The position numbers and the translations under genes were made by a program. The notes below the pieces were generated by a model. That model was given only the letters and a program-made list of their open reading frames with translations. It was not told the origin of the DNA and did not search any database. From a virus (lineage: Duplodnaviria; Caudoviricetes), in IMG/VR virus record IMGVR_UViG_2828164553_000001, positions 32,001-96,000 of that record: DNA of 64,000 nucleotides, one strand, 5' to 3'. Each line of letters starts with the position of its first letter. Position 1 is the first letter of the stretch. Below, piece by piece: positions 2,091-46,436 of the stretch.

Positions 2091-2480
2091 TCATTTAGTG
2101 CGATAAAGGCTGTCGAGGGGTAAGGCATCAAGCCCCTCTTCACCACACATCGACTTGTAAATCGCGTAGCACTGAGCAATTTTGCTCTTCACGAGTGGGG
2201 AGTCACGTTGGTCCAGTAGAGCGACAGCGTGGCCATCCTCATCCTGAACGCCTGTGCCGGACCGCCCAATGTCATCCCAGTCTTGCTGGTTCTCGACTTC
2301 TAATTCGGTGGCTCTTGTTCGGGTACTGCCGTTGAGAGCAACGGAGCAAGCAGCTGAAAAAAGCTTCTGATGCTCTACGAGCTCCTTGTACCCCTCTTCC
2401 TGCTCACCTATGCGAAAGTCACTCGTCATAACAACTGCCTCCCGTGTAGTGACGTAATTTCCCGGCAATTTTCCCGCCAC
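2091..2480 (-). CDS. Hypothetical protein between integrase and att
   Basis: 129-aa ORF convergent with the integrase; start uncertain. Confidence 0.45.
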   Translation of the reverse strand: MAGKLPGNYVTTREAVVMTSDFRIGEQEEGYKELVEHQKLFSAACSVALNGSTRTRATELEVENQQDWDDIGRSGTGVQDEDGHAVALLDQRDSPLVKSKIAQCYAIYKSMCGEEGLDALPLDSLYRTK

Positions 2481-2517
2481 AAAGAAAAACAGCCACTTCG
2501 CTTGCGCTAAGTGGCTG
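2481..2517 (-). terminator. Rho-independent terminator downstream of tRNA-Lys
   Basis: Minus strand reads CAGCCACTT-loop-AAGTGGCTG followed by TTTTTCTTT. Confidence 0.7.
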
Positions 2518-2524
2518 CTTTAAT

Positions 2525-2600
2525 TGGTGGGCCGTCAAGGATTCGAACCTTGGACCTATTGATTAAGAGTCAACTGCTCTACCAACTGAGCTAACGGCCC
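2525..2600 (-). tRNA. tRNA-Lys(CTT)
   Basis: Reverse complement GGGCCGTTAGCTCAGTTGGTAGAGCAGTTGACTCTTAATCAATAGGTCCAAGGTTCGAATCCTTGACGGCCCACCA; 76 nt with CCA end. Confidence 0.97.
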
Positions 2601-2615
2601 TGAAACTGGTCGCAC

Positions 2616-2644
2616 ATTGTATGTGCATTTTTGCTTCGTTGCAA
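2616..2644 (-). promoter_or_regulatory. Sigma70-type promoter for tRNA-Lys
   Basis: Minus strand TTGCAA-17 nt-TACAAT, ending 15 nt before the tRNA 5' end. Confidence 0.7.
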
Positions 2645-2688
2645 CACCCCGTGACACATCGGGTCAAACATTCCTGCAATTGCTCGTC

Positions 2689-2741
2689 ATCAGTGGGGTG
2701 GCTGAGGGGACTCGAACCCCCGACATCTGGAATCACAATCC
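2689..2741. repeat. att site (left) of T7-like prophage: displaced 3' half of tRNA-His
   Basis: 53-bp exact direct repeat of 46354..46406. Confidence 0.95.
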
Positions 2742-2833
2742 CGCCCTAGCCCGTAAGCATACAACGTTTTCTCGGATTTGTGACGCCGCGGGTGACGTAA
2801 AGATGACATCCGTGGCGTCACAGGTGACGCGCC

Positions 2834-2851
2834 AATTAGTCGGGGCTATAG
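2834..2851 (+). promoter_or_regulatory. Putative phage-RNAP promoter upstream of the RNAP gene
   Basis: AATTAGTCGGGGCTATA|G has T7-like geometry (17 nt, then +1 G) and matches 15833..15850 at 16 of 18 positions. Confidence 0.7.
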
Positions 2852-2907
2852 ACCAAACGAACTCTAAGTGGGGAGGAAGCACTCCTCCCCTCTACGCCAA
2901 GACAGTT

Positions 2908-2923
2908 ATCCCACATATGGGAT
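2908..2923. promoter_or_regulatory. Palindromic operator inside a possible sigma70 promoter (AAGACA-18-TATGAT)
   Basis: ATCCCACATATGGGAT; the motif recurs several times in this prophage. Confidence 0.7.
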
Positions 2924-3033
2924 ATGATCCGACCTCACTATAGAGGAGCCACTTATAGCTCTCTTCCAGTCCTACCGGAGATGCGCTTCAAGTGACATTT
3001 CCGGCCGTGCCGGTTTCAACTGTTCAGCCAATA

Positions 3034-3060
3034 CCTCCGCCTTCGGGCGGGGGCGTTTTT
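3034..3060 (+). terminator. Intrinsic terminator/attenuator just before the RNAP gene
   Basis: CCTCCGCC-TTCG-GGCGGGGG followed by a T-tract. Confidence 0.65.
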
Positions 3061-3101
3061 CGTTTGCCCATTCAATCTCAACTTCGGGACGCATTCCTAA
3101 T

Positions 3102-5522
3102 ATGCAATCTACCGCCCAGACGCTCCATGACCGCCAGCTCCAGCTGGAGTCCGAATCAACCTCCCTCGGCATTGCCCGCTACGAGAAGGCCCGCGCCAAT
3201 TCCGACGAGGCTGACACCGGCCCCGGCAAGAAGCTGGTCATGCAGGCGGTCGCGGCCACCGGCCAAGCCATCCGTGAGTTTGTCGAGAAGGCCAAACAGG
3301 GCGGCGGTGGCCGGAGACACACGGCGGTGAAGTGGCTGGAGCATCTCGACCCCGAGGGCTGCGCCTACCTAACTGCAGTGGTATGCGTGAACGCCCTGGC
3401 TGGTGAGCAGGCCAAGTTGACCGCCGTTGCGCGCTCTGTCGGCTCTGCCATCGCACAGGACGTGAACTACAAGAAGCTGCGGGACAACCACGCAGGCCTC
3501 TATCGAGTAATCCAGCAGCAGCTCAAGAAATCCACCTCCGCGCATCACTCGACCGGAGTGATGAACCACGCCCTCGCCAAGACCGAAACCGAAATGTTCG
3601 TGTTCACGCCGGACGAAGAGGCTCTGGTCGGCATGAAGCTGATCGACCTCTTCATCGAGGCGTCTGGACTGGCCGAAATCATCCTGACCAGACCCCGCCA
3701 GAACCAAACCGTCGCGATCCTGCAGGGCACCGCAGCGATCCGCGAGTGGCTCGCCAAGGCACACGAGAGCGCCTCGATGTTCCTGCCCGTGTGGATGCCC
3801 ATGCTGGTCCCACCCAAGGACTGGACGACACCCCGCGACGGCGGCTACCTCACCGACATCGGCGGGAGAGCGGACCTCGTGCGTACGCGCAACCGCGCCT
3901 ACAAGCGGGAGCTGGAGCAGGCCGACATGCCCAACGTCTACCGGGCGGTCAACCTCATCCAATCCACCCCCTGGAAAATCAACAAACCAATCCTGGAGGT
4001 GATGCAGGACGCATGGGCCGTGGGCGGCGGCTTTGCTGACCTTCCCGACCGCGACCTCTTGGAACTTCCAGAGCAGCCCGCCTTGCTGGTCAGCGATCCC
4101 GAGTTCTACAAGGAGCACCATGCCGATGAATTCAAGGCATGGAAGCGCAGCCGCGCCGAGGTCTACGAGGAGAACGCCCGCGGCACCTCCCGCCGCCTTT
4201 CGGCTGCACAGAAGATCGCTCTGGCCGAAAAGTTCAAAGACGAGGCGGCAATCTATTTCCCGCACAACCTGGACTTCCGCGGGCGTGTGTACCCTATTCC
4301 CTCAATCCTTACCCCACAGGGCGACGACCAAGCCAAGGCTCTGCTGACCCTGGCTGAAGGCGTGCCGCTGGGAGAGGATGGCGCGTTCTGGTTGGCAGTC
4401 CATGTCGCCAACTGCTTTGGCGTCGATAAGGTCGCCTTCGCAGAGCGCGTGTCCTGGGTGAGAGCAAATGAGGAGATGATCCTCGACTCCGCGCTTAACC
4501 CGCTCGACGGCCAGCGGGCCTGGTCCAATGCCGATTCGCCCTTTTGCGCCCTCGCCGCTTGCTTCGAGTGGCTGGGCTACTCAATCAACGGTAACGAGCA
4601 CATGTCACACCTGCCGGTCGCCCTGGACGGCTCTTGCAACGGCCTGCAGAACTTCTCGGCGATGCTCCGAGATTCCGTCGGCGGCGCAGCGACCAATCTT
4701 TTGCCGCAGGACAAGCCGGCCGACATCTACACAGCCGTGATGGACGTGGCCGCCGTGCGTGTAAGGGCAGAAGCAGAGGCAGGCAACGCTTGCGCTTTGT
4801 TCTGGGATGGCGCATTGACCCGCGGCATCGTCAAACAGCCGGTGATGACACTTCCTTACGGCGTCACCAAGTCCGGCATGCGCGGCCAAGTGCAGGCCAA
4901 CGCCAAAAAGGAGGGACTCTCGCCCTCCAACGAGCAGGCCGCTTACCTCGGCGACATTCTCTGGGACTGCATCGGCGAAGTCGTGGTGGCCGCGCGCCAA
5001 GCGATGGACTGGCTGAAGGAAGCATCGAAGGTCGCATCGGCGTCCGACCTCCCAATCGCGTGGACGACGCCGGCAGGCTTTCCTGTACTGCAGGAGTATC
5101 GGGAGGACCTCGGCAAGCGCGTCACGACGCACATCGGGGGAAAGCGCGTCGAATTAATCGTGGCTATGGACGGGAGCAAACTTGACCGCCGCCGCCAGGG
5201 TCTCGGCATCTCCCCCAACTTTGTTCACTCCTGTGATGCGAGCCACCTGATGCTGACCACCTGTCTCGCGTCAGACAACGGGATCACTAGCTTCGCGATG
5301 ATTCACGACTCCTACGGAATGCATGCCGGAAACACCGGAATCCTTGCCGCCTCGTTGCGTCACGCCTTTATTGAGCAGTACGAAAGCGACGTGCTGGGTA
5401 ACTTCAGAACCGAACTGGCCGAACAACTCCCGATAAAAAACGCTGCTGACCTTCCGAAGATTCCTCCCTTCGGTGACCTGGACCTCTCCGAAGTGTTGGA
5501 GAGCAGCTATTTCTTTGCCTAA
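3102..5522 (+). CDS. T7-like single-subunit DNA-directed RNA polymerase (gp1)
   Basis: Motifs LDFRGRVY, LDGSCNGLQ, RGIVKQPVMTLPYG, PNFVHSCDA, IHDSY and C-terminal YFFA. Confidence 0.98.
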   Translation: MQSTAQTLHDRQLQLESESTSLGIARYEKARANSDEADTGPGKKLVMQAVAATGQAIREFVEKAKQGGGGRRHTAVKWLEHLDPEGCAYLTAVVCVNALAGEQAKLTAVARSVGSAIAQDVNYKKLRDNHAGLYRVIQQQLKKSTSAHHSTGVMNHALAKTETEMFVFTPDEEALVGMKLIDLFIEASGLAEIILTRPRQNQTVAILQGTAAIREWLAKAHESASMFLPVWMPMLVPPKDWTTPRDGGYLTDIGGRADLVRTRNRAYKRELEQADMPNVYRAVNLIQSTPWKINKPILEVMQDAWAVGGGFADLPDRDLLELPEQPALLVSDPEFYKEHHADEFKAWKRSRAEVYEENARGTSRRLSAAQKIALAEKFKDEAAIYFPHNLDFRGRVYPIPSILTPQGDDQAKALLTLAEGVPLGEDGAFWLAVHVANCFGVDKVAFAERVSWVRANEEMILDSALNPLDGQRAWSNADSPFCALAACFEWLGYSINGNEHMSHLPVALDGSCNGLQNFSAMLRDSVGGAATNLLPQDKPADIYTAVMDVAAVRVRAEAEAGNACALFWDGALTRGIVKQPVMTLPYGVTKSGMRGQVQANAKKEGLSPSNEQAAYLGDILWDCIGEVVVAARQAMDWLKEASKVASASDLPIAWTTPAGFPVLQEYREDLGKRVTTHIGGKRVELIVAMDGSKLDRRRQGLGISPNFVHSCDASHLMLTTCLASDNGITSFAMIHDSYGMHAGNTGILAASLRHAFIEQYESDVLGNFRTELAEQLPIKNAADLPKIPPFGDLDLSEVLESSYFFA

Positions 5523-5525
5523 TAC

Positions 5526-5541
5526 ATCCCACATTTGGGAT
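5526..5541. promoter_or_regulatory. Palindromic operator immediately after the RNAP stop codon
   Basis: ATCCCACATTTGGGAT. Confidence 0.7.
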
Positions 5542-15304: not shown

Positions 15305-15838
15305 ATGAAGATCGTCGGCATCTCCGGCAAGGCTGGCTCTGGCAAGGACACCCTCGCCGGTTTTCTTGTCGAGCATCAAGGCTTCGTCCGTATCGCGCTA
15401 GCCGAACCATTGCGCCGCTTTGTGTCGGACATCACCGGCCTGAGCATGGAGGACCTGACCGCAGGCCCCCTGAAAGAAGCACCGCTCGACTGGCTGGGTG
15501 GTACTTCCCCCCGCCGCCTCATGCAGACCATCGGCACCGAATGGGGTCGAGACATGATCGACGAGAGCCTTTGGCTCAAAGTCGCCGCCCGCCGCGTTGA
15601 GGAGGCCCGTGCTTTCGGTGCTGCTGGTGTCGTCATTCCTGACGTACGTTTCGAGAATGAAGCGATGCTGGTGCGAGAACTGGGCGGCAGCGTGGTCGTC
15701 GTGGATCGACCGGGCGTCGCCTCAGTCGCAGACCATGCAAGTGAACGCCCCCTGCCCTCCGGGCTGGTGGACCACACCGTGGTCAATAGCGGGACGCTGG
15801 CGCAGCTTCGAGCGGCTGCGCAGGAATTGGCGAATTAG
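15305..15838 (+). CDS. Deoxynucleoside monophosphate kinase
   Basis: GKAGSGKDT P-loop, PRRLMQTIGTEWGR, DVRFENE, HASE. Confidence 0.88.
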   Translation: MKIVGISGKAGSGKDTLAGFLVEHQGFVRIALAEPLRRFVSDITGLSMEDLTAGPLKEAPLDWLGGTSPRRLMQTIGTEWGRDMIDESLWLKVAARRVEEARAFGAAGVVIPDVRFENEAMLVRELGGSVVVVDRPGVASVADHASERPLPSGLVDHTVVNSGTLAQLRAAAQELAN

Positions 15839-15881
15839 TCGGGCCTCTAGAGGGAAAACCCACGGTTTTCCCCTTTCTAGA
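15833..15881 (+). promoter_or_regulatory. Putative late phage-RNAP promoter with T7 phi10-like 5' hairpin
   Basis: AATTAGTCGGGCCTCTA|G followed by GAGGGAAAACC-CAC-GGTTTTCCCCTTTCTAGA, ahead of the virion module. Confidence 0.75.
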
Positions 15882-31350: not shown

Positions 31351-33375
31351 ATGGCAGAAACACCAGGCTACGTTTCCAATGCAAAGCTTGCAGAGCGCAT
31401 CTCGGCATTGGTAGACCGCTGGAACACGCGCGAAAATCAGATGATCGCGCTTCTGGCTCAACCCGAAGGATACGTAACGGTCACTGACGGCCTCGGCAAG
31501 GATCACGTCCTACCGTCCTTTCTGCAGCTCTCCAGGGATGTCTCGGAGCTTGTGGACGAACTTACGGGCGCCGTCAGCGGCGCTTCCGAGTTCGCCAATA
31601 CGGCCCGACTGTACGCTGAGGGCGCGCAGGCGTCTGCCAACGATGCACAAACGAGCGCTGAAGACGCAGCCGTGCAACTCGCAGACGCGACCGGGCGGGC
31701 AGAAGCAGCGGCTGCAAGTGCGACCGCAAGCGCCGCAAGCGCCTCCGCCTCAGAGTCGAGCAACCAATCGGCCGGACTACACGACAGCGCTGCATCCGCC
31801 AGCGCAGCCGATGCTGATGCTGATGCGATCCAAGCATCGAACTCCAAGGCCCAGGCCGTGGCCTCCGCAAGCGCAGCAGCGTCAAGTGAAGTCCAGGCGG
31901 CTTCCTACGCCCACCAGGCGGAAGATTGGAGCGACCAGGCACAGTCGTGGGCAAACGCTCCGGCTGGTACTGAGATTGAGCCAGGAGCGTTTTCAGCTAA
32001 ACACTGGTCCGAGCAAGCCAAGGCATCCCTCACTGGCACACTGGTCTACCGAGGCGGCTGGGACGCCGGCACTGGCGCGTTCCCATCGAGCGGTAACACT
32101 GGCGCGTTCTACAAGGTCACCGGAGGCGGCGCGATTGGCGGACGTCAGTACAACCCCGGTGACCAGATCGTCCATAACGGCTCTGGCTGGGACCACATCG
32201 ACAACACCGAACAGGTCACGTCGGTAGCCGGCAAGTCCGGGGCGGTCCAGCTGGTGCCCAGCGACATCTCCGGCCTGGGCACTCTAGCGACGCGCGACAC
32301 CGTGGACTTCAGTAGCCATGTCATAAACAAGCCAGCTTCGTATCCTCCTAGCGGACATATGCACACGAAGGGCGATGTAGGGCTTTCAAACGTGGACAAC
32401 ACCTCCGACGCGAACAAGCCAGTCAGCACCGCTCAGCAGACTTCACTGGATTTCAAAGCACCAATCGACAAGCCAGTCTTCACCGGGGGCGTAACAGTTC
32501 GGAACAACTTCCTTCGAGTAAGCGGCTGGCAATCGGTTCCCAACGATGGCGTGGTCTATTTCGGAGCGAGTGATAGCTGGCTCTTCAAGCAGGGAGATGC
32601 TTTCAGATTTCAGGTTGAAGGAAAGTTTAATGCAGTCCTGGATTCCTCTGGGACTGTCTGGACATCCGGAAACTTTAATCCGGCCTCCAAGGCCGATGTT
32701 GGCGGACAGCCGCGCTTCGCTGGCGTTTTTGTTGGCGCCAACAACGATCAATACCTCTACACTGAAGATGCGAATCAAAGCGTGGTACTGCGCTTCGGCT
32801 ATGGCACTTCTTTCAAGTACGCGAAGTGGAATGGCGTCACCGGCGCTTTCACCGCGCCCCACCTAATCGCGGGCGGAACCGGCAACGGAGCTTACGTACA
32901 GATTGGCGATGACGCGCGTTTGGTTGACATTGGCAGGAGCCACACCACTGCTATCCAAAGTACAGCGAATGGAAATATCGGATTTCTGCAGTTCGGATCG
33001 GGACCGACAATTGGCTGGGATGGCGCCACCCTGCAAGCGGCGGGACAAGAAATCAAGCATGCAGGCAATACCGGGTATTACGGTGTAAGTGGGCGGCAGC
33101 ATAGCGACTGGAATACCTGCGTCACTCAGGGCATCTGGATGGCTGTAGGCGCCACCAACTCTCCTGACAATTCCGATTGGTGGCTAGGCCACGTAACCGT
33201 ACACAACGGCGATTGGGTGCAGCAGGAGGTAATCAACTTCACCTCAAATCCGCCCAAGCAGTTCCGCCGCCAAAGGCAGGGCGGTAGCTGGGGCGCCTGG
33301 CAACAATGCGGCATGGTCATCGTATCGACCACAGACCCTGGCGGCGCCGATGGCGTCCTTTGGATTCAGCCGTAA
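31351..33375 (+). CDS. Second tail fibre protein
   Basis: GAGGA RBS; Ala-rich stalk, VGLSNVDNTSDANKPVST repeat, WGAWQ knob. Confidence 0.85.
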   Translation: MAETPGYVSNAKLAERISALVDRWNTRENQMIALLAQPEGYVTVTDGLGKDHVLPSFLQLSRDVSELVDELTGAVSGASEFANTARLYAEGAQASANDAQTSAEDAAVQLADATGRAEAAAASATASAASASASESSNQSAGLHDSAASASAADADADAIQASNSKAQAVASASAAASSEVQAASYAHQAEDWSDQAQSWANAPAGTEIEPGAFSAKHWSEQAKASLTGTLVYRGGWDAGTGAFPSSGNTGAFYKVTGGGAIGGRQYNPGDQIVHNGSGWDHIDNTEQVTSVAGKSGAVQLVPSDISGLGTLATRDTVDFSSHVINKPASYPPSGHMHTKGDVGLSNVDNTSDANKPVSTAQQTSLDFKAPIDKPVFTGGVTVRNNFLRVSGWQSVPNDGVVYFGASDSWLFKQGDAFRFQVEGKFNAVLDSSGTVWTSGNFNPASKADVGGQPRFAGVFVGANNDQYLYTEDANQSVVLRFGYGTSFKYAKWNGVTGAFTAPHLIAGGTGNGAYVQIGDDARLVDIGRSHTTAIQSTANGNIGFLQFGSGPTIGWDGATLQAAGQEIKHAGNTGYYGVSGRQHSDWNTCVTQGIWMAVGATNSPDNSDWWLGHVTVHNGDWVQQEVINFTSNPPKQFRRQRQGGSWGAWQQCGMVIVSTTDPGGADGVLWIQP

Positions 33376-38303: not shown

Positions 38304-38348
38304 ATCCCGAGATTGGGACTTGACCCGATCATGGAATTGATCTAGCTT
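38304..38348 (+). promoter_or_regulatory. Early sigma70 promoter 1 with adjacent operator
   Basis: ATCCCGAGATTGGGAC (38304-19) abuts TTGACC-17-TAGCTT. Confidence 0.7.
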
Positions 38349-38354
38349 ATATCC

Positions 38355-38570
38355 CATCGGCCAGCCACACCGGCCGGCGCGATCCCTGAGCCGCCCAGCG
38401 CGGCGCTAAGAGAAGCAATCGGATTCAACCGGCCCCAGCCCGTGCAATGCGCTACTGGGGCGGCCTTCAAGGGCCTGCGACTACGCCGAGAGGCAACCGC
38501 AGGGGAACCGAAAGAGGCCAAGGCGGCTAGAGGCCGCACGGTTCCGGGGTGCTCTCAGGCATAGCCGCAA
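38355..38570 (+). ncRNA. Candidate structured non-coding RNA 1
   Basis: Closing stem CCTGAG/CTCAGG encloses several hairpins; no credible ORF. Confidence 0.5.
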
Positions 38571-38571
38571 C

Positions 38572-38622
38572 ATCCCAACATTGGGAAATAACTTGACAAC
38601 GGGACGATTCCAGATTTAGGAT
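38572..38622 (+). promoter_or_regulatory. Early sigma70 promoter 2 with two operators
   Basis: ATCCCAACATTGGGAA, TTGACA-18-TAGGAT, and ATTCCAGATTTAGGAT overlapping the -10. Confidence 0.75.
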
Positions 38623-38628
38623 ATGTCC

Positions 38629-38925
38629 CACGGTCGCTGAGGCGGCCAGCTGGCAAAGCGGGAAGCTCTCCCGTCGCATTCCGACCCTTGCACGGGGTCG
38701 TAAATAACACGGTGCGGCTGGACCAGCTAAGGCGCGATGAGGCGTCGTTGCGGGAAGTCCGGGACGGGAATGGCTATGCCTTCGCCCACCCACATGACGA
38801 CCCCTCAACGACAGCGGAGCGGCACTGGCCCGAAACCGGCACGGCCTGACAATCCTGCACACCGCAGGAGAGTCGGGCCACTCAAGCGCCTCAGCAACAC
38901 GGGGGTGTTTGAGTGGCTTGATTCA
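38629..38925 (+). ncRNA. Candidate structured non-coding RNA / leader 2
   Basis: 9-bp closing stem GCTGAGGCG/CGCCTCAGC, internal hairpins, and an alternative 16-bp hairpin before the RBS. Confidence 0.5.
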
Positions 38926-39821: not shown

Positions 39822-39844
39822 AAGCCGCCTCCGGGCGGTTTTTT
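39822..39844 (+). terminator. Intrinsic terminator in the early region
   Basis: AAGCCGCC-TCCG-GGCGGTT followed by a T-tract. Confidence 0.75.
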
Positions 39845-41889: not shown

Positions 41890-42156
41890 TTGAACAGCTT
41901 CTTCGATCCACGCGCCGACACTGCAGTCCACGCACCAGACGGCAAGGTATTTGCCTATGGTCCCCGCATCACCCGCGGGGGCACCTTCGGCAAACCTGAG
42001 TACGCCGAGCCTCCCAACCCCGGCGAGACGCCCGACCACTGGGAGGTCCGCTGGGTGGACTACTACGACAACGCGGGCCACTTCATAGACGGCTGGATCG
42101 CGGACTGCGCGGTCGAAGCGCACGCGAAGTTGCTGGCCAAGGCACTAAGTCAGTGA
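41890..42156 (+). CDS. Early hypothetical protein
   Basis: AGGAG RBS before a TTG start. Confidence 0.6.
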   Translation: MNSFFDPRADTAVHAPDGKVFAYGPRITRGGTFGKPEYAEPPNPGETPDHWEVRWVDYYDNAGHFIDGWIADCAVEAHAKLLAKALSQ

Positions 42157-42329
42157 AGGCGGTCGCAGACTTTAGACAGCATGCTGCCTCAATTAAAGCT
42201 AAGGCCTTGGGCCATTCTTTCAATTAGTAAAAGGCCGCCGACATAGCGTCGGCGACCAATGTTAAAACAGCTTTACTCAAAAGCTCCGAGATACTTCGCT
42301 TCTCAGCATAATTTCAAAAAAATTCAAAC

Positions 42330-42581
42330 CTACTTACTAGCCCGAGTTGGCGCGATGAAGTTAAAAAACCATCTCCAAGCTGACGTCACAGTCAACAAGC
42401 ACACTAGGCCCGAGAGAGCAGCCAAGATTACCATCCAGGGCTTCAGTGCTACAGGGAACGGCGGGTTCGAAAATGCGGCAGGCGCAACAAATCCAGACCA
42501 AACGCACACGATAAACGAAACCATGAATATTGCGGCAGTCCTCCCGCGAGGATAGCTTAATCCCAACATGTAGCACCTCAT
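42330..42581 (-). CDS. Small two-TM membrane protein (moron)
   Basis: Two hydrophobic helices; lies downstream of 42604..43494. Confidence 0.55.
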   Translation of the reverse strand: MRCYMLGLSYPRGRTAAIFMVSFIVCVWSGFVAPAAFSNPPFPVALKPWMVILAALSGLVCLLTVTSAWRWFFNFIAPTRASK

Positions 42582-42603
42582 GGATGAAATTTGACTTTTA
42601 AAG

Positions 42604-43494
42604 TTAGTCGTACTTGTAATTACAGGTAGTCTCAGGCTGCCCGTTTACGGTCCCTGTGACACAGATAACTCCATTGACTTTCCTCACGGGCGCCCCTTTC
42701 TCCATATTAACACCGATGATGAAAAGCTGATTCACAAACGCTGCCACATCCGTCTGACTCGACCCTGCGAAGTTGTAAACGGTCGTAACCCCAGGATTCT
42801 TGGGCAATTGATCTTTGTTTTGCGGTATTACATTGTTCGCGTTGTCTCGATATGATCCAGGCACCGGCTTAAACGTCTGAAAATCGCGATCCCAGAAATA
42901 TCGAGCCACTCCACCATCTGCATAACGCACGATGATTGGGATTTTGATATCACGCGCTAAAACTGGATTTACACCATTAACGATCATTTGAAGCATCCCG
43001 TAGAAGGGATGGCCGAGGAGCCAATTACTAACCGCCACTTGCCTACCAGGATTATACATGTCGTCATAAGGGGTTGTCGGAAATCCCGGCTGAGCAATGA
43101 TTTCAGGCTCTGCGGATGCTGTTCGCATAGCAGCCATGTAATTACTCATCCCGGACTCTACCGGCAGAACCGTGGGTACGATTACTGGGAGACAACCAGG
43201 GCGTGGCTGAGAACTGGGAGGACAAGGCACATCGCCTTCCCAGGTTCTTTGCATTCTCCACTTAAGAGTTCGGTCGTTACTGGCGTTTACGACATATATC
43301 TCTGTGGTGGAGGGCAAAGGTTGCGTTTGGGCGTACTGCCGCGCAGCTATCTGCATAGCTCCAGGCGCGCAACCTTCGCAGGAAATGGCTACTTCCTTGA
43401 CCTGTGCTGAAACATCACCGGTATATAAAAAAGAGCATACCGCGATTACCGGCAGTAATAGGGTGACTAGCTTTCCTGTGACCTTGTCGTGCAT
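42604..43494 (-). CDS. Secreted Cys-containing hypothetical protein (moron)
   Basis: GGAG RBS, Sec signal peptide (VSA-Q), three Cys pairs, AT-rich. Confidence 0.75.
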   Translation of the reverse strand: MHDKVTGKLVTLLLPVIAVCSFLYTGDVSAQVKEVAISCEGCAPGAMQIAARQYAQTQPLPSTTEIYVVNASNDRTLKWRMQRTWEGDVPCPPSSQPRPGCLPVIVPTVLPVESGMSNYMAAMRTASAEPEIIAQPGFPTTPYDDMYNPGRQVAVSNWLLGHPFYGMLQMIVNGVNPVLARDIKIPIIVRYADGGVARYFWDRDFQTFKPVPGSYRDNANNVIPQNKDQLPKNPGVTTVYNFAGSSQTDVAAFVNQLFIIGVNMEKGAPVRKVNGVICVTGTVNGQPETTCNYKYD

Positions 43495-43707
43495 TTCTCG
43501 CTCCATGATTTTAGGTTTTGTGCAGGCCCCCTGTTGCCCACGTCCGTTTATAGCACGTGAAGAAGCTGCGTCTACTTTCTTGACGCGATTCGCAGAAGGC
43601 GCGGCCTGCAAACGAATGGTCTTGCCGCATCTATGTCCTTCAATCGTTTCGAAAAATGGCAATACCACGCCTTTGGGAGGCTAATCTTGTGAACCACGTT
43701 GTGAAAA

Positions 43708-43958
43708 TGAACGTCGACGATCTTTTCGACTACATGTCGCAAAGGTCTGCGAAAGCGGGCAAGCGCGCTTTGGAGCGGGACAAGATCACAGCAGATGTTT
43801 CTTCGCGTCCTGCTGCGGAGACGTCAAAGATTGACCTGATCCTCGACTCCAGGGGACGCCCCCTGGTCTCCATCTGTGAGATGACCGGGCGCTTTAATAG
43901 CCGCCTGCGAGACACAACGCATGACACCTACGACGACGACGAGGGGGCCGATCAATGA
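43708..43958 (+). CDS. Hypothetical protein
   Basis: ORF with acidic tail and ATGA coupling; start uncertain (possibly 43690). Confidence 0.45.
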
Positions 43959-44149
43959 GCTGCGCCGCGCGTATGGTCACGACTTCGCACAACACGGGGA
44001 ACGATCTTCTGACTGCAATTGGCGATGCACTCGCAGCGGCACGTGTGGCGGCGCCTGAGGTGCCTGTCCAACTGCACGCGATTTCAAGGGAAGGCGGAGA
44101 GTGGGAGCTGACAGTAGTGCGTCGCCCGATGCCCGAGAGCAACTCTTGA
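43955..44149 (+). CDS. Hypothetical protein
   Basis: GAGGGGG RBS; ATGA overlap. Confidence 0.45.
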   Translation: MSCAARMVTTSHNTGNDLLTAIGDALAAARVAAPEVPVQLHAISREGGEWELTVVRRPMPESNS

Positions 44150-44644
44150 AGCCGGCAGAAGCGGCGCGAGAAGCGGGCATTCTTTTCGTGAAGACAGTGT
44201 TCCTTGCCTTTCTGTGCGGAGGCGTACTTCTAACACTCCTGGCGCCATTCCTGGCCTTATTTGCCCACGCTTGATGGCAGCCATGTCGCTGCCGGCACAA
44301 GAATTGCTAGTGATACTAACTTCGCATGGCATCTGAGGTTCTCGACTGAGATCGTTCTACACCCACCACATAACCCTAATTCGCGATATGGCCTAAATTT
44401 GATACGAGAGAAAGACTCAGTGAACTTCTTGAAGAGCCTGCTTGCTCTACTTTGCCGCCGTCCAAGATTCTTCCTAATCGAGGCTACGCCCAACCAGAAA
44501 GGCTTCTGGGTGGACGTGATCAACGTCAATTGCATGTATATCGGTCTCGGGATCGGTATCATTGCAATTGAGGGACATGACCCTTAATCGCGAAGAAGGA
44601 TGGATGCGGCTTCGCGCTCACCAGGCACATACGGAGCCGTCTCC

Positions 44645-45049
44645 ATGACACAGCTGACCACCGAAGAACTCGTGCAGATTCTCCACATCGCTCTTGGCGA
44701 GCTTCGCCAGGATGTTGAACCGGGGCTATTGGCATCCAAGATTCTCTGCCTCACTGCAACCTACAACCACCCGGGAACCCTGCAGTCCGAAATTACGAAG
44801 TACGTCAAAGACCTGACGCCTTCGGCAGCGTCCCGCCACATCATGGACTGGTCGTTTCGCGGCAAGACTCTCAAGCCGGGCGATCAGCCCAGCGGCATGG
44901 AATTTATCCAGCAGCAGGCCGATCCACTGTATCCGCGCCGCAACCTCCTCCACATGACCCCTAAGGGTCTTCAATACCTCTCAAACCTCACTGATCGCGT
45001 CAACGAGGCGCTGCAGAAGCGCGCCGTGCGTTCGGCGAAATCCGCATGA
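44645..45049 (+). CDS. MarR-like winged-helix repressor candidate
   Basis: GTLQSEITK...LTPSAASRHI HTH and DP..PRRNLLHMTPKG wing; GGAG RBS; directly upstream of the integrase. Confidence 0.75.
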   Translation: MTQLTTEELVQILHIALGELRQDVEPGLLASKILCLTATYNHPGTLQSEITKYVKDLTPSAASRHIMDWSFRGKTLKPGDQPSGMEFIQQQADPLYPRRNLLHMTPKGLQYLSNLTDRVNEALQKRAVRSAKSA

Positions 45050-45059
45050 TGGAGATGCA

Positions 45060-46322
45060 ATGCCGTTACGACTTAAGGGCACAGCCCCCCGACCCGGGGA
45101 GGCTGACCGTCGCTATTACATGATCGACGTGCAGGTGGAAAAGCGCCGGGAGCGACTATCCGCCGGAACTCGCGACAAGAACCTCGCGCTCCGTAAGGAG
45201 CAGAACATCATCGACGCGCTACGTGACGATCCTGAAGTCACTACGCTGGAACTCAAACGCATCCTCCGGGGCGAGCGTCTTGCCGCCATCCAGGATCGCC
45301 GCAGCGAAGATCGGGCCTGGACGCTGAAAGAAGCGTGCGACAAGTGCCTCAAGGACCGCGAGGACGGTGGCTGGGGTGCGGCGTCCTCCAACGACACCTA
45401 CGCAACTAACTGCCGCATGATCCAGAAATTCCTGGGAGCGGACACGCCGGTTGCCTTCATCGATCAAGAAAAGATTCGCGACCTTGCAGACCATCTCCTC
45501 GACGAAGAGGAGAACGCGCCTGCCACGGTAAACCGCAAGCTCTTCGCGCTGATGCACGTCTTGGCTTACGCCAAGCAGCACAAGCAGTACCCGAAGGAGC
45601 TCCCCAAGTGGAAACCGCACAAGGAAGGCGACAACGCTCGCCAGTTCGTGCTGACCGCGGAAGACGAGCGGGTGATATTCGATGCAATCGCCAAGCTCGA
45701 CGACCGACCGGACAACCCGCTCGGCGGCAACCAGGTCTCGCGCGACGCTGCGGACTTCGTTGACTGCTTTACCTTCTTGGCGGACGTTGGCTGCCGCTTC
45801 TCTCAGGCGCTGAAAGTGCGCTGGCGGGACATCGACTGGGACCTTATGCCGGGCGTCGTAGGCATCAAGTTCTGGCGCAAGGGAGAGCAGAAAGGAGGGA
45901 GGGTTCGCACTATTCCCTGCACATCCCGCGTGGTCGATGTACTCAAGCGGCGACGGGCGCTGGGAGGAGATGGCCCATTCTCGGGACTGCGCAGGCAGCG
46001 AGGCACCGAGCTATGGAACATGGCAAAAGCAAGGACCAACCTGGCTAGGGAAGAAGAGTGCGTTCCCCACTGCTTGCGGCACACGTGCGCAACCCGCTTG
46101 CTTGCTCGTACGGGCGACCTGAAGTTGGTTCAAGAATGGCTCGGACACACCAAGATTGAGACCACGGCGGCCATCTACGCGAAGGTGTTGGTGGACACAA
46201 AAGTGCGAGCGCTGAGTGCACTGCAAGACGGGTGGAATGGCGCGTCACCTATCCCAGATGTGGGAACAATCCAGGACTGCAACCTATCCCAACATCGGGA
46301 CGACCCGACAGTAACCCAGTGA
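45060..46322 (+). CDS. int: Tyrosine integrase of the T7-like prophage
   Basis: GCR, KGG, HCLRH, LGH and IY catalytic motifs; adjacent to att. Confidence 0.95.
   Translation: MPLRLKGTAPRPGEADRRYYMIDVQVEKRRERLSAGTRDKNLALRKEQNIIDALRDDPEVTTLELKRILRGERLAAIQDRRSEDRAWTLKEACDKCLKDREDGGWGAASSNDTYATNCRMIQKFLGADTPVAFIDQEKIRDLADHLLDEEENAPATVNRKLFALMHVLAYAKQHKQYPKELPKWKPHKEGDNARQFVLTAEDERVIFDAIAKLDDRPDNPLGGNQVSRDAADFVDCFTFLADVGCRFSQALKVRWRDIDWDLMPGVVGIKFWRKGEQKGGRVRTIPCTSRVVDVLKRRRALGGDGPFSGLRRQRGTELWNMAKARTNLAREEECVPHCLRHTCATRLLARTGDLKLVQEWLGHTKIETTAAIYAKVLVDTKVRALSALQDGWNGASPIPDVGTIQDCNLSQHRDDPTVTQ
46251..46301. promoter_or_regulatory. Two palindromic operators in the integrase 3' end
   Basis: ATCCCAGATGTGGGAA (46251-66) and ATCCCAACATCGGGAC (46286-301). 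Confidence 0.65.
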
Positions 46323-46353: not shown

Positions 46354-46406
46354 ATCAGTGGGGTGGCTGAGGGGACTCGAACCCCCGACATCTGGAATCA
46401 CAATCC
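46354..46406. repeat. att site (right) of the T7-like prophage
   Basis: Identical to 2689..2741. Confidence 0.95.
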
Positions 46407-46436
46407 AGTACTCTAACCAGCTGAGCTACAGCCACC
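46359..46436 (-). tRNA. tRNA-His(GTG)
   Basis: Reverse complement GGTGGCTGTAGCTCAGCTGGTTAGAGTACTGGATTGTGATTCCAGATGTCGGGGGTTCGAGTCCCCTCAGCCACCCCA, including G-1. Confidence 0.97.

Follow-up and report, generated by a model that had tools for sequence, protein, structure and literature searches.

The window analysed here, a 64,000-nt (64 kb) stretch of the IMG/VR virus record IMGVR_UViG_2828164553_000001 (positions 32,001 to 96,000), holds a 43.7-kb T7-like prophage between perfect 53-bp direct repeats, with its genes in T7 order. The element is a temperate T7-like (Autographiviridae) prophage in a Xanthomonas-type chromosome, carrying the gene for a single-subunit RNA polymerase (RNAP) at one end and a MarR-like regulator together with an integrase (int) at the other. 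The segment between the left attachment (att) core and the RNAP gene is probably, on sequence grounds, a lysis-lysogeny control region, in which a self-promoter, a MarR-type operator and a terminator would combine into damped positive feedback on RNAP. Feature coordinates are collected in Table 1.

Probable promoter motif of the phage RNA polymerase

The motif AATTARTCGKGSCTMTRG, 18-20 bp in length, is very probably the promoter of the phage's own single-subunit RNAP, as its geometry and conservation suggest. Two copies on the + strand, AATTAGTCGGGGCTATAG at 2834-2851 and AATTAGTCGGGCCTCTAG at 15833-15850, are identical at 16 of 18 positions, verifying the coordinates and the count given in the original prediction, with 0.03 matches expected by chance. 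A degenerate pattern allowing at most three mismatches (<=3) finds three sites in 64 kb, where shuffles predict 0.03, and a position weight matrix scan of the same 64 kb separates the three sites (28-32 bits) clearly from the next best position (10 bits). These sites, termed phi1, phi2 and phi3, are all co-oriented with the genes they serve, on the + strand. The T7 promoter geometry proposed earlier is also borne out, with an AT-rich stretch from -17 to -13 (AATTA), a TA-rich stretch from -4 to -1 and G at +1; the start region reads CTATAG, CTCTAG or CTATGG and is followed by GA in 3 of 3 sites. The 15833 copy, together with the GGGAAAACC-CAC-GGTTTTCCC and TCTAGA that follow it, can be aligned to T7 phi10 across promoter, 5' stem-loop and TCTAGA, which places the +1 at G15850.

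The longest stretch without variation in the RNAP gene across 8 relatives (5148-5167) falls on the phi2 site, which also holds the gene's sole TTA among 79 leucine codons; together these argue for selection on the DNA itself. Its codons spell ELIVAMD, a segment aligning with the T7 specificity loop around Q758, so that the loop that reads promoters is encoded by DNA (5152-5169) which itself resembles a promoter for the same polymerase.

The original prediction named lack of conservation of the motif upstream of RNAP in related prophages as evidence against it; six relatives conserve the motif there. Aligned over the interval between the att core and the RNAP start codon, they show no change from -16 to +3, save that -12 (G/A) and the adjoining -17 (A/G) vary, and the leader around the motif is heavily substituted. 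The metagenomic relative L010, with an RNAP 87%, an integrase 76% and a regulator 35% identical to those of the window, keeps all 3 motif sites, and its RNAP specificity loop differs at one residue. The RNAP is intact, with the equivalents of T7 D537, K631, Y639, R756, H811 and D812 conserved, and the gene is also intact in 8 relatives, where the fraction of variable columns at the three codon positions is 0.15/0.08/0.67.

It is highly improbable that the 2834 motif is a part of attP, bound by the integrase, an excision factor or a host bending protein, and is promoter-like only in appearance. Its position 93 bp from the att core, directly after a cluster of GTGACG-type repeats, would suit such a role, but the motif recurs 13 kb away, where it precedes the structural genes and a phi10-like leader follows it, and a further copy sits inside RNAP; L010 keeps three copies though its integrase is 76% identical, and distant relatives repeat the pattern with unrelated motifs.

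Other T7-like matches were rejected. The T7-looking CCTCACTATAGAGG at 2933-2946 reproduces the T7 core in full (10 of 10 positions). Only the window and L005 carry it, L001 and L010 lack it, and it has no second copy, pointing to chance. Another contig (L034) matches the pattern exactly within a T4-type terminase gene; the phage is unrelated, and by our own estimate a few chance matches are expected in a collection of this size.

Candidate self-directed promoters in related phages

The generality of this arrangement was assessed with a repeat test, in which 18-mers from the 700 nt preceding RNAP were sought again in the sequence that follows it; the test recovers the experimentally mapped phi1, phi2, phi3 and phi4 promoters of phage LUZ100 as a positive control. 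In L003, a prophage in a Comamonadaceae metagenome-assembled genome with an RNAP 42% identical, the motif CTAAACCCCGACCTTCGCT is found upstream of RNAP and twice downstream. Two further relatives (L011 and L014, RNAP 43%) likewise carry the motif TAWAACCCACCTCTCGCAGA upstream and downstream of RNAP, and the same pattern with lineage-specific motifs occurs in L012, L016 and L019 (RNAP 28-43%). Judging by sequence comparison, a self-directed promoter before the polymerase gene thus seems common in the integrase-bearing branch.

Predicted operators and the MarR-like regulator

The palindrome behind the operator predicted between phi1 and the RNAP ATG (2908-2923) is real and over-represented. The palindrome ATCCCACATATGGGAT recurs at 5526, 38304, 38572, 38607, 39054, 46251 and 46286, giving 10 strand-matches against 1.0 expected. 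Near-perfect operators overlap the early promoter 38593-38622 and the neighbouring promoter at 38320. Operators stand immediately around the RNAP gene, which suggests that physical disconnection is not relied on alone to keep it silent.

The probable ligand of these sites is the regulator encoded upstream of int, which is 27% identical (E 4e-9) to LUZ100 gp10, described as MarR family in its record. A two-sequence profile of the regulator matches regulators in the PDB with a best E of 1e-4, among them 2fa5, titled as marR/emrR family; the other top matches (3bpv, 3bpx, 3k0l and 2a61) are MarR-type as well. Pfam and NCBIfam return no match for the regulator, a word-based homologue search returns its own cluster only, and its AlphaFold model, with a predicted local distance difference test (pLDDT) score of 40, is unusable.

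Comparison with L010 separates promoter from operator. In that relative every ATCCCA-N4-TGGGAT is replaced in place by ATCCA-N4-TGGAT, namely after the RNAP stop, at the int 3' end, at the early TTGACA promoter and before the RNAP ATG, where the position aligned to 3075-3090 holds a good copy of L010's own operator. Since L010 keeps the promoter and changes both the regulator and the palindromes, the motif goes with the polymerase and the palindrome with the regulator. The palindrome family was also considered as the phage promoter, its 5526 copy sharing 15 of 21 positions with the T7 promoter, and was rejected because the palindromes change with the regulator in L010 and the RNAP with its specificity loop does not.

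The original prediction further assigned the operator a role as a repressor roadblock to the phage polymerase, and this claim proves weaker than stated. The lac repressor is known to block T7 RNAP well only with an operator near the start site. The operator here lies about 65 nt past the start, and by this analogy a site centred at about +65 appears better suited to occluding a host-type promoter than to stopping an elongating phage polymerase; host-promoter occlusion fits at least as well as the roadblock.

A doubtful but possible alternative follows these lines, with RNAP switched on mainly by host polymerase from the operator-occluded sigma70-like promoter at 2899-2928 and phi1 being accessory or serving another purpose. 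The operator at 2908-2923 fills the spacer of this AAGACA-18-TATGAT element, the same operator-over-spacer/-10 design is seen at the early promoter 38593-38622, with 19 of 23 bases in common (manual count), and the -10 is kept in four Xanthomonas-type relatives. Repressor sites flanking the promoter upstream of RNAP also correspond to the model of Boeckman et al. (2022), as cited for MarR sites in PMC10134795. Conversely, the -35 is poor and variable, L010 is without such a promoter there, the two sigma70-like matches in the region are not significant against 1.0 expected, and transcripts from 2899-2928 would meet the same terminator as those from phi1.

Structured leader and terminator

Between G2851 and the RNAP ATG lies a leader of 251 nt with a pronounced tendency to fold (z = -3.8; none of 200 shuffled sequences is as stable). 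Folding supports the hairpin predicted at 2870-2890, and a scan with folding supports the UUCG terminator predicted at 3034-3060. The second predicted hairpin, at 2975-3004, is present in the minimum-energy fold of the window; the consensus fold of five relatives pairs the stretch differently. That consensus fold of five sequences contains 57 pairs, of which 9 change on both sides against 2.9 in shuffles (1-2 with slid partners), and 3 of the 9 covarying pairs sit in the terminator stem.

The terminator, with 8 pairs (7 GC) and a T5 within the next 8 nt, is called on the + strand only in the scan, and is situated 183-210 nt after the +1 and about 40 nt before the RNAP start codon. It is identical throughout the Xanthomonas-type set, and in L010 the stem is kept via 3 compensatory changes with its U tract interrupted, so the hairpin may matter beyond termination. 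Additionally, CAAACGAA (2854-2861), among the first bases of the RNA, is an exact 8-nt complement of UUCGUUUG (3059-3066) directly past the terminator hairpin, a pairing by which an RNA running from phi1 to the terminator would close on itself as a panhandle. L010 retains a shifted version of this pairing, CAGAAC/GUUUUG.

The original prediction had RNAP amplify its own gene once triggered. A promoter-like motif does stand upstream of RNAP; the terminator downstream of it means that most phi1 transcripts should stop before RNAP, and any feedback consequently depends on read-through. An unlikely alternative to damped feedback is that phi1 and the terminator form a unit making a stable non-coding RNA of about 210 nt, or a replication or packaging primer resembling the end and origin promoters of T7; upstream of the T7 early genes, too, stands a phage promoter, phiOL. 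The terminator distance, the 8-nt panhandle with its shifted counterpart in L010, the leader stability and covariation, and an invariant 16-nt block with a 15-nt complement in the early leader would all suit such an RNA. An Rfam scan of 2400-3300 speaks against it, finding no family at gathering score aside from tRNA, the best leader match being ctRNA_p42d at 22 bits against a required 50. Moreover, the L003 motif lies about 75 nt before its RNAP ATG with no terminator between them on reading the sequence, and LUZ100 phi1 lies directly upstream of RNAP, past the terminator.

The invariant leader block (3003-3018) has its 15-nt exact complement in the early leader, the longest between the RNAP leader and any + strand prophage sequence, a length reached by 0 of 200 shuffled leaders. 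The L010 lineage also has an inverted copy (L042 3164-3178), in which its change would keep a G-U pair. Between the window and the L010 lineage the early leader at 38630-38870 shows about 90% identity, though their RNAP genes differ at 20% of positions, and it lacks obvious codon periodicity; it is probably conserved as a non-coding RNA or a structured leader. Searching viral contigs with the 15-nt leader block gave more than 100 stretches, and tblastn finds an RNAP relative in none of 117 such stretches.

It is conceivable, at a low probability, that an early non-coding RNA acts in trans on the phi1 leader and sets the level of read-through there, making the leader a regulated attenuator. In such a scheme, early RNA made by host polymerase at the repressor-controlled promoter 38593 would pair with the block at 3003-3018. 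If true, early derepression would be coupled to RNAP self-amplification through an RNA-RNA trigger between the prophage ends, independent of excision.

Attachment sites and integrated topology

The integration target is a tRNA gene, with a 53-bp repeat of the 3' part of tRNA-His at both prophage ends and a complete tRNA-His(GTG) on the minus strand at 46359-46435. The GTGACG cluster between the att core and phi1 comprises probable arm-type recombinase sites of attP; analogous GTGCC repeats occupy the equivalent place in L003 and L014. The nearest genome match is a Xanthomonas arboricola pv. juglandis contig, with an RNAP 96% identical and the same tRNA-Lys/tRNA-His site, and the element is integrated and intact in several Xanthomonas-type genomes. 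The highest identity of the RNAP to that of a named phage is 43%, with 40% for LUZ100 and 39.6% for Pasto.

The order repressor, int, attP and RNAP that had been proposed for the circular form agrees with the positions of the att repeats, int and the regulator, and is found in one line in L014. On this unintegrated contig (RNAP 43%), a regulator candidate with a weak MarR_2 match is followed by an integrase gene whose 3' end overlaps a tRNA-like att, and then by short direct repeats, the motif, an inverted repeat and RNAP. The further claim that integration cuts RNAP off from the early promoters is correct as to topology; as a means of holding lysogeny, disconnection is a weaker candidate than proposed, because other terminators already separate those promoters from RNAP. 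The early promoters (38320 and 38593) lie 6.4 kb and more upstream of int, with a + strand terminator (39822-39841) and a candidate minus-strand open reading frame (ORF) with its own terminator in between. Because terminators stand between the early promoters and int, integration does not obviously remove transcription feeding RNAP, and removes at most read-through from the regulator-int operon.

Table 1. Coordinates, strand and support of the features described (window positions; a dot is given for features without a strand).
Feature	Position	Strand	Basis and remarks
attL core, 3' part of tRNA-His	2689..2741	.	100% repeat of 46354-46406
GTGACG-type repeat cluster, between att core and promoter	2782..2830	+	Kept in 6 relatives
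phi1, predicted phage-RNAP promoter, +1 G2851	2834..2851	+	Pattern, position weight matrix, conservation
5' leader hairpin GGGGAGGA/TCCTCCCC	2870..2890	+	Folding; GAGG/CCTC core kept, loop and stem extension vary
Sigma70-like promoter AAGACA-18-TATGAT, operator in spacer	2899..2928	+	-10 kept in Xanthomonas-type relatives, absent in L010
Operator ATCCCA-N4-TGGGAT (ATCCCACATATGGGAT), perfect	2908..2923	.	Only central bases vary in relatives
Invariant leader block GGCCGTGCCGGTTTCA	3003..3018	+	Invariant even in L010; 16 nt upstream of terminator
Intrinsic terminator: 8-bp stem 3034-3053, UUCG loop, U tract to 3060, tail to 3066	3034..3066	+	Scan and folding
Degenerate operator-like site just before RNAP ATG	3075..3090	.	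3 mismatches to consensus, by eye
T7-type single-subunit RNAP, 806 aa, intact	3102..5522	+	Pfam RNA_pol 3.8e-116, also RPOL_N
phi2, promoter-like site within RNAP gene 3' end	5152..5169	+	Pattern, position weight matrix, invariant run
Operator, perfect, 4 nt past RNAP stop	5526..5541	.	Kept in relatives; ATCCA-N4-TGGAT in L010
phi3, with leader hairpin 15852-15872 and TCTAGA, before structural genes	15833..15881	+	Aligns with T7 phi10
Early control region: operators 38304, 38572, 38607 and sigma70-type TTGACA-18-TAGGAT (38593-38622)	38304..38622	+	Scan
Inverted copy of leader block, early leader	38831..38846	-	+ strand early RNA would carry 15-nt complement (38832-38846)
MarR-like regulator, 149 aa, probable start 44645 (134 aa)	44600..45049	+	phrog_9665 1e-6
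Tyrosine integrase	45060..46322	+	Pfam Phage_integrase 6e-17
Two operators in last 70 nt of int, beside att core	46251..46301	.	L041 has its own operator type there
attR core inside intact tRNA-His	46354..46406	.	Repeat of attL core

Proposed switch and points against it

Damped positive feedback on RNAP would operate as follows, with initiation at the motif, termination efficiency, repressor binding and the role of the integrated topology inferred. In the lysogen, the MarR-like protein would bind the ATCCCA-N4-TGGGAT sites over the early sigma70 promoters, bracketing RNAP and flanking attP, silencing the early genes and host-polymerase entry into RNAP. The location of attP between int and phi1 would leave integrated RNAP at the far end from the regulator-int operon. 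Once polymerase is present, phi1 transcripts would start at about G2851 and cross the structured leader of about 250 nt; most would end as an RNA of about 210 nt, and read-through alone would encode RNAP, yielding attenuated positive feedback. Of the remaining promoters, phi2 would feed the DNA-metabolism genes and phi3 the structural genes.

Several points weigh against this scheme. The terminator after phi1 argues against efficient self-amplification, and termination may not be the conserved function, given the broken U tract of L010. Leader covariation is supportive but not conclusive, the structure being derived from the same five sequences, four of them close relatives. No recognisable Shine-Dalgarno sequence precedes the RNAP start codon (3085-3104; TCCTAATATG or TCCTCATATG) in any relative, so translation initiation of RNAP may be weak or unusual. 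No convincing sigma70 promoter is found between the terminator and the RNAP ATG; candidate sources of the first RNAP molecules are the weak operator-covered host promoter, or regulator-int read-through in the unintegrated form. Three promoter copies are few for a T7-like phage, and the conservation of phi2 is partly protein-level, as it lies in conserved coding sequence. The interpretation offered by the original prediction is reasonable and partly supported, and largely coincides with an already published model.

Transcript-derived contigs and neighbouring genes

Sequences matching the control region were found in RNA-library contigs from three studies (24 runs each containing less than 1/10 of the words, four of them examined in detail). 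These contigs hold an approximately 800-nt copy (2694/2712-3481), 95% identical with 37 differences, that spans attL and the leader and extends 380 nt into RNAP, and all stop at one foreign junction. The promoter motif is unchanged in them and the operator has 1 change (2913 A to G). Some strains apparently carry a shortened remnant of the prophage. As evidence of transcription the contigs were rejected, since a truncated relative represented by contigs only is uninformative on starts, ends and levels.

The prophage also encodes a gp2.5-like single-stranded DNA-binding protein, a primase-helicase, a family-A DNA polymerase and a portal. An early gene at 39966-40676 matches anti-restriction PHROGs (phrog_2059, 2e-30) and, to judge from this match, would replace T7 gene 0.3 in function, not by homology. 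A low-GC island at 42150-44600 (47-53% GC against about 62%) contains a candidate 354-aa minus-strand ORF (42604-43668) with a minus-strand terminator at 42257-42233; the ORF matches nothing in Pfam or PHROG, and a moron or cargo gene is its probable identity. A second integrase-like ORF of 395 aa (900-2087, + strand) sits outside the prophage, to the left of a tRNA-Lys gene (2525-2600); it matches Phage_integrase at E 7.5e-6, below the Pfam cut-off, and may be part of another integrated element.

Comparison with known systems

Temperate T7-like phages have been recognised recently, and the understanding of their lysogeny control rests on the LUZ100 transcriptome and comparative models. In LUZ100 (Putzeys et al. 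2023, PMC10134795), phi1 was mapped directly upstream of RNAP, and a sequence of host-polymerase read-through of a terminator, RNAP self-amplification and MarR-like repression was proposed. LUZ100 resembles the window in having a homologous MarR-like regulator and a tyrosine integrase upstream of RNAP, with a terminator in the int-RNAP interval; it has further phage promoters right after RNAP. The order of elements differs, with LUZ100 terminator T4 preceding phi1, whereas the only terminator of the interval in the window (3034-3060) follows phi1, within a structured leader that also holds an operator. The promoter sequences are unrelated, and lysogens have not been demonstrated for LUZ100, whereas the present element was found integrated.

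Pasto, a phage of Rhizobium/Agrobacterium, likewise carries in its GenBank record a helix-turn-helix regulator, an integrase, a tRNA/att site, a terminator and RNAP, with an inverted repeat bracketing RNAP in the manner of the 2908 and 5526 sites of the window. It differs from the window in having several genes between int and RNAP, and its shared motif is itself palindromic, with no self-promoter identified. T7 phi10 shares with phi3 the AT-rich -17 to -13 stretch, the CTATAG/CTCTAG start, the +1 G, the 5' stem-loop and the TCTAGA; from -12 to -6 the window reads GTCGGGS, in contrast to CGACTCA in T7. The residues of the specificity loop equivalent to T7 N748 and Q758 are T and E in the RNAP of the window. 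Unlike the present element, T7 has no phage promoter directly serving gene 1.

In HTVC019P-type pelagiphages, all attP sites lie between int and RNAP. Their RNAPs are about 28-30% identical to that of the window, with no promoter, operator or terminator analysis of the int-RNAP interval reported. The placement of attP between int and RNAP is a common feature of the group. The principle by which att recombination joins or separates a regulatory element and its target, making expression follow the integration state, is familiar from sib retroregulation in lambda; there RNase III processes the int mRNA at its 3' end, and polymerase supply is not the means.

Relative to these systems, the new elements are an integrated natural example in a plant-associated genus, the promoter-before-terminator order in a structured leader, an economy of three promoters with one lying within specificity-loop codons, and the complementarity between the early leader and the RNAP leader. 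The prophage provides a natural system with a self-promoter, MarR operators, a terminator and attP between int and RNAP, all conserved, in which promoter and operator are separable by covariation with their proteins. It also supplies a new orthogonal RNAP-promoter pair and a candidate design for attenuated feedback. Set beside LUZ100, Pasto and the pelagiphages, it leaves the current picture of such phages unchanged and stands as a clean natural example, not a new principle.

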